DNA of 64,000 nt from NCBI GenBank assembly GCA_051294375.1, contig CM119264.1:21246645-21310644 (forward strand). Direction: 5' to 3'. The stretch is from Paraspadella gotoi (lineage: Eukaryota; Animalia; Chaetognatha). Shown here in pieces: positions 8,699-11,600 of the stretch (within the stretch, counting starts at the first letter, position 1; every line of letters begins with the position of its first letter). The notes under the pieces were generated by a model that was given only the letters and a program-made list of their open reading frames with translations, was not told the origin of the DNA and ran no database searches. The position numbers and the translations under genes are program-made.

Positions 8699-11600
8699 TC
8701 ATTCTCCCGCGGACTTTTTGAACGCTCCCGCTTCGGCGTCCCAGATCATATTTCCCTTCACGACGAGATCACATTTCCCCAAGCACTTCCCTTCGTTGTA
8801 CATCGGCTTCCAGAATCCCAGGACGTCCACGCCTTTGGATCGATCCTCCAAATCCTTTGCCTGAGGATCGAGACATGAAATTTTTTTTTAAGGGGAGAGT
8901 GTGTAATTTAGGTAATTGGATTATTGAGCAGTTCTACTCCACGCCACTCTACCAGACGTTTTCCGAATCCTTACCTGATCGTCGAAAGAATCTTTGCATT
9001 CCTTGTCGCAGGTCGGCATCTTTTTGAGGACATTCCAACACTCTGTCAGAGACAAAGAGACTGACCAGGTCGTCTTGGAGACGATGACTCGGGGTAGACC
9101 CGTACAGACGGTATTAACGATATTGAATTTGTCTTCGTCGCTGACGCCTGCATCAAACGTAGTTGCGAAAATATTAATCACGTCACAGGATATACCAAAA
9201 ATTTCATCTAACTCAATGAACGAAAATTGTTGACTTTTCTCACTAATTTTTAGTAGTTTATAAAATGTTTTACGTATTTGGCCGTCGTTACATTTTAAAA
9301 ATATTTATTATCGACCCCTGAAGAGATAGTAATTATTGATATGTGTTAATGACAGAACCGTTCAATAATAAGCGGTCCCTGAGCTTCGGATCAGGCAGTA
9401 ACACCATGTTACAGGCGGGTTAAGCGCCCCGTCCCTCTTAACTGCCAGGCGGCCACCGGGCTAGAACCCCGGACCTTTGGGTTGGGAGGCGAATGATCTG
9501 CCTCCAGCACCAATGGCCGCTGATGAACGGTTGGTGGATTTTAGTCCACCATACATCCCCCCTCCCGTAGGGAGAAGTCTGTTGCGTCTCTTCAGTGAAT
9601 TGTTGTTGTTGGTGGAAAATGCGTCACCAATTTGACGCATGTCGCCTGATGTGTTGTTGCGGAAAGTGCATCGCATGGTTGAGGCATGTCGTCTGAAAGT
9701 GTTGTTGCTGTTGTGTTCGGAAGACGGGCTCACCAATGTAGAGACAATAATTATTGATATGTGTTAATGACAGAACCGTTCAATATAAGCAGTGCCTGAG
9801 CTTCGGATCAGGCTGTAACACCATGTTACAGGCGGGTTAAGCGCCCCGTCCCTCTTAACTGCCAGGCGGCCACCGGGCTAGAACCCCGGACCTTTGGGTT
9901 GGGAGGCGAATGACTTGCCTCCAGCACCAATGGCCGCTGATGAACGGTTGGTGGATTTTAGTCCACCATACCCCTAACGTTACCGTCGATTTCTGTCGTG
10001 AATTTCTGGATTAATAGGAGAAAATCTTGGATGTTTCTCTCGTCGCCGCAATCGATCGCCAACTTCATCGAGTCAGGAATTTCGCTCATGAAGGTGCGTA
10101 AATTATCCGGGGAAAGTTGGCGAGCCGCTTCGGTCTCGCACGCTGTCCGAACCACCTGAGAGGGGAGGTTGAATTCAAAAGGGAATGCAGAGATTGATGA
10201 GTGACTGGGATGTTTAAATGACGGACATCTCGACTCGGATTTCGAATAAAAATTCTAGAGAATATAAATATTCTTTGCCCATATGATTAAAAAAATTAGC
10301 CCATTCGTCCAAATCATAAGCGATTTTTATTGAAGTATTTTATCCATGAATAATCTATTTCAATAAATGAAATAATTATATAACTGTTAGTATACTATAA
10401 TTATCAATTATAAAAATAACAAAAAAATATTTTTCGTAAAAACAAAAGATCTAAGACTCAAAAGGACAACGCCCTCAAATACCTGCAATCGCCTAAATGC
10501 TTCCCCGGCGCTCTTGCAGATTTTCGAGTCGTCAACTTTGACCAAATCCATGGCGGCGTCGATTCGTTTGAGGATGTCCTCCTTGGCGGAAGGACTGCAG
10601 CAAAGGGGATTGGCCCACATCCGGAGAACGTAGTCTTCATGGGCGACGGGAATATTGCGGCGGAACCAAGACCTAGAAAAGAATTGGTGGTTTTACAAAA
10701 TGAATAGTAATAGTAACAGTAATAACCGATCAATAGAGCTTTAATTTTACCTGGCGATAGGCCTGAGATCGTTTATCTCCGATTCCTCTTCCTTGGTTAA
10801 TGTCAGGCAACGGGAAGGCAGCTTGTGTGTGATGCCTTTGCCGGTCGTTTGAGAATAAGTCTTTTCTCCCGGTTTCAGACTTAATTCGTCGCCTAAAAAA
10901 AAAATAAAAAACAAAACTAAACAAAACAAACAAAACACTTTTTTTTTTTCCTTCTTTTTTTACTGTTTTTGTTTGTCTTTTCTGTAGTTTCTTTTATTTG
11001 CCTTTTTGACGATAAATTGATAAATTTTGAATTAGGTTCGTTTTAAAATTTAAAGATTAGACTAAAGGTTAGGTAATGGATTAGTTTAAGTTTTAGGATT
11101 TGGGGTTACGGTTGAATATTAGAGATTATGGTTGAGGGTTAAGTTAAAGATTAGGTTGGGGTTAAGAATTATGGAGTAGTGTATAATTAGTTTTGTGGTT
11201 TAGTCACAGATTTTCAATGCTTATCTACAGATATATAATTAAAATTAAATTTAGGGATTAAGGAACAGAAAAGAGTTGCTTTTGGAAGAGAGAGCCGATT
11301 TTTTTTACTCTATTTTTTGTAGTTTTTTTTTTTTTACCCAATATAAAGAGCAGATTGACGCTGAATGGACTCTCCTTCAACGCGGCGTAGAGCAACTTCC
11401 TCGCCTCGAATTTGATTCTTTTTTTCGGCGGAAGTCGATGAAACAAATTAAGCGCCACCTGTCCACAACGCCAGGCGGGTAGGTTCGGATAGGAGACGGC
11501 CAGGCCCAGAGCCGTATCGTAGTCGACCATCACGCGTCTGAGCGTGGTATAAAAAGAAAGAAAGAAAGAAAGAAAGAAAGAAAGAAAGAAAGAAAGAAAG

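Follow-up and report, generated by a model that had tools for sequence, protein, structure and literature searches.

Organization of a miniature LTR element

The window, i.e., the entire 64,000-nt stretch of Paraspadella gotoi contig CM119264.1 analyzed here, carries on its minus strand at 9319..9970 a 652-bp non-coding sequence with the termini TA...CA. From its sequence features it is almost certainly a full-length miniature LTR element (TRIM). Read from 9970 to 9319, it has the order LTR-PBS-internal-PPT-LTR and consists of a 234-bp 5′ LTR (9737..9970), a 183-bp A/C-rich internal region (9554..9736) with an imperfect internal duplication of ~45 nt, and a 235-bp 3′ LTR (9319..9553). The LTR pair aligns over 235 columns with 8 mismatches and one gap, and the identity is 96%. 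A PBS-like sequence at 9723..9735 (minus strand) starts with TGG one base past the LTR end. It has 11 of 13 letters in common with the published tRNA-Trp PBS of PMC10886601 Fig. S2; the majority of family copies in public contigs differ at 9724, which brings the match to 12 of 13. The polypurine tract, 11 nt at 9556..9566 (minus strand), ends two bases ahead of the 3′ LTR. A 4-bp target-site duplication, GGGG, flanks this single full-length copy of the window (left copy 9971..9974, right copy 9315..9318, minus strand). No retrotransposon domain was found in the 147 ORFs scanned of the 455 window ORFs of at least 55 aa. T4 is absent from both LTRs, and the sole internal T4 is disrupted in 165,358 of 166,410 depth units of the contigs in run X2.

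Public contigs show the same boundaries. In run X2, loose contig ends are found at 9970 (107 contigs), 9971 (26), 9553 (61), 9740 (67) and 9319 (64), and sequences beyond the 9319 and 9970 ends are unrelated, AT-rich and in low agreement among contigs. The flanking letters nearest the element are in the majority ATAT at both ends. Runs X5 and X9 display the loose-end pattern of X2. Summed contig depth over the internal region 9554..9736 is 0.3-0.56 million versus 88 on unique flank (X2); summed depths, with a maximum of 2.5 million versus 88, indicate strong repetition and not copy number. The LTR/internal junction is bridged by a contig of a second organism (9628-9774, <90% alike). The LTR-PBS-internal-PPT-LTR layout, the duplication, the fixed ends in many dispersed copies and the twister pairing pattern described below are direct observations on the window sequence and the public contigs. 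It should be noted that contigs carry no information on RNA ends, strand or level, and that X9 is only guessed to be RNA. Separately, a single X9 contig aligns with 9983-10158 and ends at the predicted splice donor, a weak hint from one study.

The initial annotation had described a SINE-like family at 9318-9971. The two copies at these coordinates are the LTR pair of a single element that also has a PBS, a PPT and the 4-bp duplication. The main family starts 33 bases upstream of the tRNA-like head and ends in CA, and it does not conform to tRNA-derived SINEs as defined by a start at the head, a tail, and the lack of LTR, PBS and PPT.

tRNA-like sequences in the LTRs

Each LTR has a 73-nt tRNA-like sequence with intact acceptor and T stems and broken D and anticodon stems. 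That of the 5′ LTR, at 9865..9937 (minus strand), has putative Pol III A and B boxes, with a degenerate A box and a single deviation in the B box. The box B motif GGTTC of Helenus is present. For the box A motifs TRGCY and YGG of most Helenus families, the LTR shows no match at the expected position even with two mismatches allowed. The tRNA-like sequence of the 3′ LTR, at 9448..9520 (minus strand), displays Gly(CCC) at the anticodon position. ARAGORN makes no call at the default threshold. It calls tRNA-Gly(CCC) at 9448-9520 at the 90% threshold (1 of 300 shuffles), and 9865-9937 at the 80% threshold only (11 of 300 shuffles), a level with 28 calls across the window and hence of little meaning. 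The tRNA-like, Gly(CCC)-looking head thereby has weak support.

A tRNA-like head with a B-box had been ascribed to each of the four ribozyme copies of the initial annotation. The complete 73-nt head is present only in the two LTRs. The copy at 18868 keeps the T-arm, but its 5′ half has diverged (alignment p ~0.03), and at 51732 a B-box is present together with a related head (p ~0.01). No head or B-box was detected at the fifth copy, 3519-3582 (minus strand). A 9-nt segment upstream of the tRNA-like part, at 9941..9949 (minus strand), is complementary to 9774-9782 downstream of the ribozyme. If formed, this pairing would lengthen the helix enclosing head and ribozyme.

Twister-like stem loops

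Immediately downstream of the heads, both LTRs carry a twister-like ribozyme motif in the type P5 order: 9789..9862 (minus strand; hexamer 9840-9845, predicted cut U9839/A9838) and 9372..9445 (minus strand; hexamer 9423-9428, predicted cut U9422/A9421). P3 and P5 of the 3′ LTR ribozyme each have one mismatch. The 5′ LTR ribozyme is the less damaged of the pair and is complete without the 9-nt extension. A lone LTR-derived copy at 18845..18993 (plus strand), with a diverged or replaced 5′ part and the same 3′ end as the LTRs, has its ribozyme at 18868-18941 (plus strand; predicted cut U18891/A18892). A divergent sister copy with approximate ends 51630..51865 (plus strand), which may be LTR- or SINE-like, has a head, a B-box and a ribozyme at 51732-51806 (plus strand; predicted cut U51755/A51756). 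The fifth copy, at 3519..3582 (minus strand; hexamer 3558-3563, predicted cut U3557/A3556), is without the P3 helix. The four copies of the initial annotation are all present and read in the order it described, with the U of the UAA at 9422, 9839, 18891 and 51755 in agreement with the cut it predicted at U18891/A18892; the fifth had been missed. T1 is CCG/CGG in the four copies, as was described, but CCA/UGG in the fifth.

A structure descriptor, designed with knowledge of the copies, matches exactly five window sites (the four named copies and 3529-3568, minus strand) versus 4 matches in 40 block-wise shuffles. When the P1 region is set to 6 nt and T1 is required to be GC-rich, the 40 shuffles give no match. 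A looser descriptor gives 17 window matches, 12 of which lie outside the copies and are mostly AT-rich. The UAA, the conserved GA and the P4 loop U-NNN-AA-NN are found in all five copies. Pair counts for the five copies were taken from a parsed table, in which every position of P2, P4, T1 and T2 pairs in each copy, with double changes in all four. The T1 and T2 pairings, whose loss would have spoken against a twister, are entirely Watson-Crick in 5/5 copies with one double change each. In an alignment of four copies, made without the fifth and with the P5 of the 51732 copy shifted by one column, 8 of 28 pairs are altered on both sides; all 8 double changes trace to one copy, and the covariation base is three related sequence types only.

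Contig variants extend this pattern. One P2 pair that is A/U in the window is G/C in most of the contig depth of the 51732 sub-family, and a further sub-family shows an entirely different P5 that is still complementary. Changes in T1 at ~10% in the 51732 sub-family lie on CpG sites and may represent decay. Among the 40 listed of 69 main-family variant rows, none falls in the catalytic core or hexamer, and flanking positions vary.

The motif departs from the standard model in two helices. P2 has 3 pairs and a bulge in all five copies versus 4 pairs in the Rfam consensus, and the place of P1 is taken by a palindromic hexamer. The Rfam twister models, proposed earlier as a check, leave the four named copies without a score up to E = 10; at gathering thresholds Rfam has no match in the window, and no hammerhead family matches. 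The Twister-P5 model (RF02684) scores the fifth copy at 25.8 bits, below the gathering threshold of 37.6 (E 0.32 window-wide, 0.0012 locally), and a model built from the four other copies finds the fifth at 26.5 bits (rough E 2.4e-7). For the main-family monomer and the whole precursor, the minimum-energy fold contains an alternative hairpin that masks T1 and T2. The type P5 assignment is retained as a type-P5-like twister fold, which is supported by the descriptor counts and compensatory changes, with P1 and P2 deviating. The LTR motif is very probably a twister-derived fold, and it is likely to be catalytically active. A twister variant that escapes Rfam at default thresholds implies that similar families may be overlooked elsewhere. 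In a motif scan, 16 viral-contig loci were inspected by eye and rejected, none having twister helices or a tRNA-like head.

The palindromic hexamer

The P1 region is a self-complementary hexamer in 5/5 copies and in all three hexamer types, which include a swap of the central pair that one strand alone cannot form. Positions 1 and 6 are pairable in every copy. Within a strand the hexamer forms one pair, and between two strands it forms six; the self-duplex has -7.5 to -9.1 kcal/mol versus +4.1 to +5.6 for one pair plus tetraloop. A swapped dimer is modeled at -48.7 versus -37.0 for two monomers, values that leave out pseudoknots and concentration. Dimer-enhanced cutting is about as likely as not. 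Axolotl hammerheads with a single-pair stem and a palindromic tetraloop cut better as dimers, according to the relevant part of PMC7229834. Since twisters without P1 can still cut, albeit inefficiently, as the section on them in PMC8501958 reports, dimers are possibly not needed.

A possible circular RNA intermediate

The circle route, which is slightly favored, is one in which the twister-like folds of the two LTRs, likely as a pair, would release a 417-nt RNA that is circularized and recopied by a helper retrotransposon. The transcript would arise either by read-through or from the A/B boxes in the tRNA-like part of the 5′ LTR. The hexamer palindromes in place of P1 would pair across the two LTRs, each ribozyme being assembled from a 5′ half contributed by one LTR and a 3′ half contributed by the other, with cleavage at both U/A sites. 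The predicted unit between the cut sites, 9422..9838 (minus strand), is a candidate circular RNA. It would carry a 5′-OH and a cyclic phosphate at its ends and lack a repeated R region, and for these reasons it would have to be ligated, probably by RtcB. A Gypsy-type reverse transcriptase, starting from a tRNA-Trp-like primer, might then circle round the template and rebuild two LTRs, and the integrase of the Gypsy-type helper would insert the new copy. Folded as a circle, the unit has a z of -3.6 and none of 60 shuffles is equally stable; pairing in the predicted circle is limited to 57%. In plant retrozymes a released unit without an R region is circularized, as stated in the portion of PMC4918200 consulted. 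If P1 forms only where the two LTR copies of a full-length transcript come together, solo LTRs and finished circles would stay mostly uncut.

Alternative explanations

A different and rather unlikely use of the ribozyme would be only to make a 3′ end: a transcription start at the tRNA-like box of the 5′ LTR, cutting by the 3′ LTR ribozyme alone, and a linear RNA in which 99 nt of R region are retained, so that LTR strand transfer can proceed in the ordinary way. The twister would then replace a Pol III terminator. Only the 3′ LTR ribozyme would cut because the upstream 9-nt helix-extending segment is present only there; a transcript starting at 9937 is without the 9-nt complement (9941-9949 with 9774-9782). 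Such a scheme makes the circle unnecessary and is in keeping with the T run that follows the tRNA part in most of the Helenus LTRs examined in the available sections of the source, the ribozyme standing here instead. It leaves the palindrome in 3/3 types unexplained, however, and the 5′ LTR ribozyme is complete without any extension and, in this copy, the less damaged one of the pair. The palindrome also bears on a monomeric twister, in which the hexamer would be one pair plus tetraloop or an open linker, with modest gain at most from self-complementarity, in a TRIM that is still retrozyme-like. P1 can be reduced or absent in known twisters (PMC8501958), and positions 1 and 6 are pairable throughout. 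But the four central bases, which are self-complementary in all three types, are needless for a monomer (the chance is 1 in 16 per type if the sequences are unrelated), and one pair plus tetraloop is energetically unfavorable; we regard this explanation as improbable.

A slightly more doubtful idea still is that of a passenger: the LTR of a small TRIM would have taken up a SINE-like element with a tRNA head and a twister, and the ribozyme in the TRIM would now be inactive or irrelevant. The SINE of the earlier description would be its ancestor, perhaps persisting as the 51732-type family. Relatives of the 51732 copy stop at 51847 (12 contigs in X2 and 10 in X5) with an A-rich end and unrelated flanks, not with CA, and a SINE insertion is proposed to have given rise to Helenus LTRs (PMC10886601). 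The non-standard P2 and the missing Rfam score of the main family also fit a passenger. Against it, the listed main-family variants spare the catalytic core and hexamer while flanks vary, and the alignment of the window's 51732 copy with the LTR starts at its first base (p ~0.002 for the 5′ part), with a CA at the matching distance. The 3′ part of the 51732 copy is not significantly LTR-like (p 0.37), no target duplication was found at the 51732 or 18868 copy, and the flanks of the fifth copy are not LTR-like (p 0.54 and 0.80). The contigs of the second organism have no match to the 51732 region, which is not proof of absence. The 51732 copy is related to a sister family of lower copy number, which may be SINE-like. 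That the 9318-9971 copies are independent or tandem SINE insertions around an unrelated spacer is already largely refuted and hardly credible. Lone copies do exist in window and contigs, but PBS and PPT adjoin the repeats, one duplication brackets both, and the spacer is itself high-copy, with its junction to the repeat bridged in the second organism.

Novelty and significance

The full-text literature searched, which excludes subscription journals, Repbase, the supplements of the original twister paper and bioRxiv supplements, yielded no report of an LTR or TRIM that carries a twister, nor one of a palindromic dimeric twister, and neither an animal LTR retrozyme nor a twister LTR retrozyme was found in it. 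The initial annotation had not recognized a Pol III-type mobile element with a self-cleaving twister as a described family. Helenus is a described case of the tRNA-in-LTR layout (PMC10886601), and the Schistosoma hammerhead SINEs are a described case of a ribozyme in a Pol III SINE-like element (PMC6765202); for a twister inside such LTRs no description was found. The element unites two separately described classes, tRNA-promoter TRIMs (Helenus) and ribozyme-bearing LTR retrozymes, and if the predicted release and likely circularization of the 417-nt RNA hold, it would be an animal counterpart of plant retrozymes. Tentatively, it may be the first animal LTR retrozyme and the first based on a twister, the twister being a natural dimer through a P1 between LTRs.

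Such an element gives eukaryotic twisters a concrete function that can be put to the test; their only other roles found in retroelements, in the parts of PMC8501958 and PMC7761336 consulted, are at the 5′ ends of non-LTR elements. If P1 comes from a partner copy, there is a parallel to dimeric hammerheads, and the tolerance of the genome for many copies of a fast ribozyme could be explained. The engineered circularization by tandem twisters that is mentioned in PMC7229834 would find its natural match in a twister-RtcB circle route.

Comparison with known systems

In the portions of PMC10886601 (Kojima 2024) used here, Helenus/TRIMp3 are like the present element in being non-coding TRIMs of <1 kb with a tRNA-like sequence in the LTR, and in having PBS, PPT, solo LTRs and a Gypsy-type PBS; animal Helenus have a 4-bp duplication, and a few have LTRs that begin with TA, as here. 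Most Helenus LTRs examined in these portions have a T run after the tRNA part, whereas here a twister-like fold follows. The word twister has no use in the text of that paper. A motif search of its Helenus consensus file, in which line breaks can mask motifs, found no twister loop in LTR context. Pol III transcription is putative for Helenus as well. In two published wasp Helenus LTRs, visual inspection showed a hammerhead-like motif in the position that the twister-like fold has here. If the retrozyme reading of the present element is true, then together with the wasp motif it would mean that tRNA-promoter TRIMs have repeatedly acquired ribozymes and become circular-RNA elements.

The ribozyme itself shares with the type P5 twister of RF02684 the order P5-P2′-GA-T1′-P1-UAA-P2-T2-P3-P4 loop and both pseudoknots; the model has a 3-pair P1 stem with a 14-nt loop in place of the palindromic hexamer. 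The Schistosoma Perere-3 twister variants, as far as the relevant sections of PMC8501958 describe them, likewise have a weakened P1 and lie inside a retroelement, but they are of type P1, lie in an autonomous non-LTR element, at its 5′ end, and have a P1 partly supplied by the target site. P2 of the published Schistosoma twisters has 4 pairs in Table 1 of that paper. Hammerhead SINE-like repeats of Schistosoma have a Pol III promoter upstream of the ribozyme, comparable to the putative one here (PMC6765202, in part), and the dimeric hammerheads of Penelope-like elements and axolotl have a short palindromic stem that favors dimers, as here, in tandem copies (PMC7229834, in part). These three systems, as described in the same portions, differ from the present one by their hammerhead chemistry and the lack of LTR, PBS and PPT.

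The last systems compared are the plant LTR retrozymes (Cervera 2016, PMC4918200; PMC7761336). In the parts of these papers used here they have, like the present element, a self-cleaving ribozyme motif in both LTRs, PBS, PPT, a 4-bp duplication, a non-coding center and a unit without an R region. They differ in that their hammerheads are of type III, their PBS is for tRNA-Met and their units are larger, and the descriptions examined mention no tRNA-like promoter, unlike here. Animal retrozymes are said in a passage of PMC7761336 to be without LTRs, PBS and PPT. As is characteristic of LTR retrozymes, the two LTRs carry the ribozyme motif at equivalent positions (9789-9862 and 9372-9445), but the hammerhead of the original definition is replaced by a twister-like motif. 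By analogy, the element would work like a retrozyme and is not a member of the class by its strict definition.

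Twister-like motif and its conservation

The four twister-like copies of the initial annotation are confirmed at 9372-9445(-), 9789-9862(-), 18868-18941(+) and 51732-51806(+). Each displays the same order of parts: P5, AA, 4 bases, GA, 3 bases, a hexamer, UAA, 3 bases, RC, P3, P4 capped by an 8-nt loop, and the second P5 strand. An additional copy, for which no tRNA-like head was detected, is found at 3519-3582(-). A structure descriptor composed with prior knowledge of the copies gives exactly 5 matches in the window, the four named copies and the fifth, and 4 matches in 40 shuffled windows. 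At gathering thresholds no Rfam match is present in the window. The check with Rfam twister models proposed in the annotation matched none of the four named copies at E<=10, and Twister-P5 matched only the fifth copy (25.8 bits; gathering score 37.6). A covariance model made from the four named copies recovers the fifth copy at 26.5 bits. We are highly confident that the motif is real and twister-derived.

Retention of the pseudoknots T1 and T2, on which the annotation had staked its reading, holds in the local family comparison: P2, P4, T1 and T2 are paired at every position in three sequence types. Four copies have T1 CCG/CGG, as originally read, and the fifth has CCA/UGG; T2 is AC/GU in two copies and GC/GC in three. 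Two-sided changes are present across copies in P2 and in P4. When the four named copies are aligned, both sides are altered at 8 of 28 pairs (slid controls, 0-1), with all 8 double changes contributed by the 51732 copy alone. Among public contigs, a P2 pair that is A/U in the window's 51732 copy is G/C in most relatives of that copy (the 51732 sub-family), and another sub-family has a different yet complementary P5, located behind a B box. T1 changes at about 10% in the 51732 sub-family fall on CpG sites and were excluded from support. All five copies deviate from the twister norm in two respects: P2 consists of three pairs and a bulge, and the hexamer substitutes for P1.

Carrier element

The region 9318-9971 had been read as SINE-like. 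This reading fails, as the two ribozyme copies there are in the LTRs of one TRIM (a miniature LTR element) with PBS, PPT and target duplication. Two direct repeats, 234 and 235 bp long (9737-9970 and 9319-9553, minus strand), differ by 8 mismatches and one gap and enclose 183 bp; GGGG is found on either side of the whole element. The tRNA-like part is preceded by 33 bases of the repeat, whose final letters are CA. One base past the first repeat begins a PBS-like tract, starting TGG, with an 11/13 match to a published tRNA-Trp PBS; nearly all contig depth departs from the window at 9724, which makes the match 12/13. A purine tract of 11 bases lies ahead of the second repeat.

Family-level evidence comes from public contigs aligned to two stretches of the window. 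Contigs of sequencing run X2 break off into unrelated flanks 107 times at 9970, 61 at 9553, 67 at 9740 and 64 at 9319; the flanks are AT-rich, with ATAT as the nearest letters, and runs X5 and X9 are concordant. A contig from a second organism spans the LTR/internal junction, and the internal region is highly repeated in its own right. The family is a TRIM with solo LTRs, and the carrier is almost certainly a TRIM of the Helenus type, which has tRNA-like sequence in its LTRs, and not a SINE.

A 7-pair hairpin is seen at the extreme start of each LTR (9949-9968 and 9532-9551, minus strand). The TRIM is seemingly intronic and in sense orientation, with a GT donor at 9982, an AG acceptor at 9208 (-) and open frames on both sides. 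If the ribozyme is active in that intron, the pre-mRNA could be cut.

The proposed tRNA-Gly head corresponds to a 73-nt tRNA-Gly(CCC)-like fold at 9448-9520 (ARAGORN, 90% threshold; 1/300 shuffles). The glycine label is weak because the D and anticodon stems are broken; the acceptor and T stems are intact. The B box, which has GGTTC, deviates at one position; the A box is degenerate. Neither LTR has a four-T run, and the only one in the internal region is disrupted in 99% of contig depth. With the B box present and such runs absent or broken, Pol III transcription of the element is plausible from its sequence.

Other copies and possible relatives

The LTR-derived copy at 18845-18993(+) has the 3′ end of the LTR in common and a diverged 5′ part. 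Upstream of it, 18710-18844(+) is GC-rich with recurring GGAGGCG words, in very AT-rich surroundings. The 51732 copy can be aligned to the LTR from the first base; the likeness is significant in the 5′ part (p ~0.002) and not in the 3′ part. Its contig relatives terminate at 51847 in an A-rich end. They may form a SINE-like sub-family, in keeping with the SINE-into-LTR origin proposed for Helenus (PMC10886601). At 46095-46806(+) four tandem units of ~190-220 bp, with CT microsatellite between them, retain P5-like ends and a hairpin resembling P4 and have no GA/UAA core. They score 9.6 bits (E 0.5) with the ribozyme model and are possibly decayed relatives of the family.

Hexamer pairing and predicted processing

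The hexamer is taken as the P1 position because the published layout (PMC8501958, Table 1) runs P1 from directly after the T1 strand to the U of UAA. The three hexamer types, GGCGCU, GACGUC and AGGCCU, are each self-complementary, and the central pair is reversed between types. The computed energy is +4.1 to +5.6 kcal/mol for the best fold within one strand, a single pair with a tetraloop, and -7.5 to -9.1 kcal/mol for the six pairs formed between strands. A swapped dimer has a computed energy of -48.7 versus -37.0 for two monomers, values that leave out pseudoknots and concentration. The same signature, one pair closed by a palindromic tetraloop, characterises axolotl hammerheads that cleave better as dimers (PMC7229834). 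Two points count against a dimer: twister cleavage without P1 is possible, if inefficient (PMC8501958), and an alternative hairpin masks T1 and T2 in the minimum-energy folds computed for the main family.

A transcript spanning both LTRs would carry two ribozymes 417 bases apart. Through palindrome-palindrome pairing the 5′ half of each would fold with the 3′ half of the other, with predicted cuts at 9839/9838 and 9422/9421. The freed unit would be without the repeated R region, so LTR-type copying would require circularisation, an argument already made for plant retrozymes (PMC4918200). The main rival reading is cleavage by the 3′-LTR ribozyme only; the linear RNA would then retain a 99-nt R region. 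We judge this unlikely. Relative to 60 shuffles, the predicted 417-nt unit folded as a circle has z -3.6, and 57% of its bases are paired. Animal retrozyme RNAs were ligated far better by RtcB than by self-ligation (PMC7229834). The helper would be Gypsy-type, given the tRNA PBS and 4-bp duplication and by analogy with animal Helenus; no helper retrotransposon was seen in the window, where 147 of the 455 ORFs of at least 55 aa were scanned.

Window setting

The window is eukaryotic, rich in microsatellites and, to judge by its longest open reading frame, probably animal. That frame, 14509-17130(-), has 873 codons and encodes PAN, trefoil and five F5/8 type C-like domains, with best matches to vertebrates at 25-30% identity; kringle-like exons lie further downstream at 11731-12212(-). 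A ~900-bp repeat with long inverted ends (7538-8524 and 60970-61885) resembles a MITE or fold-back element and also occurs as fragments at 17904-18089 and 24007-24310. A ~430-bp dispersed repeat with internal sub-repeats is present at 35134-35638 and 38147-38944. A large inverted repeat at 33287-33596, whose long arms are (GA)n and (TC)n, attracts false Rfam miRNA matches. On visual inspection, short frames at 39888-40445(+) resemble the N-terminus of a decayed Tc1-type transposase; Pfam gave no match to them.

Comparison with known systems

Box A apart, the defining features of Helenus that can be tested (PMC10886601) are found here; box A is degenerate. Most Helenus LTRs in the supplement parts examined differ, their tRNA part being followed by a run of Ts. 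The word twister is not used in the text of that paper, and motif searches of its consensus file, in which line breaks can hide motifs, gave no twister loop within an LTR. In two wasp consensus sequences of the supplement parts, Helenus-2_SyJa-LTR and Helenus-2_SyUm-LTR, a type III hammerhead-like motif (CTGATGA, GAAA, three stems) is seen by eye just 3′ of the tRNA-like part; in the paper's text hammerhead occurs only in a reference title.

No report of a twister within a TRIM was found in the full-text literature searched. Where twisters are known to be linked to retroelements, they sit at the 5′ end of non-LTR elements (PMC8501958, PMC7761336), and animal retrozymes are described in reviews as without LTRs, PBS or PPT (PMC7761336, PMC7229834). 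In its predicted working the element resembles an LTR retrozyme, but its motif is twister-like and not a hammerhead, which places it outside that class as strictly defined.
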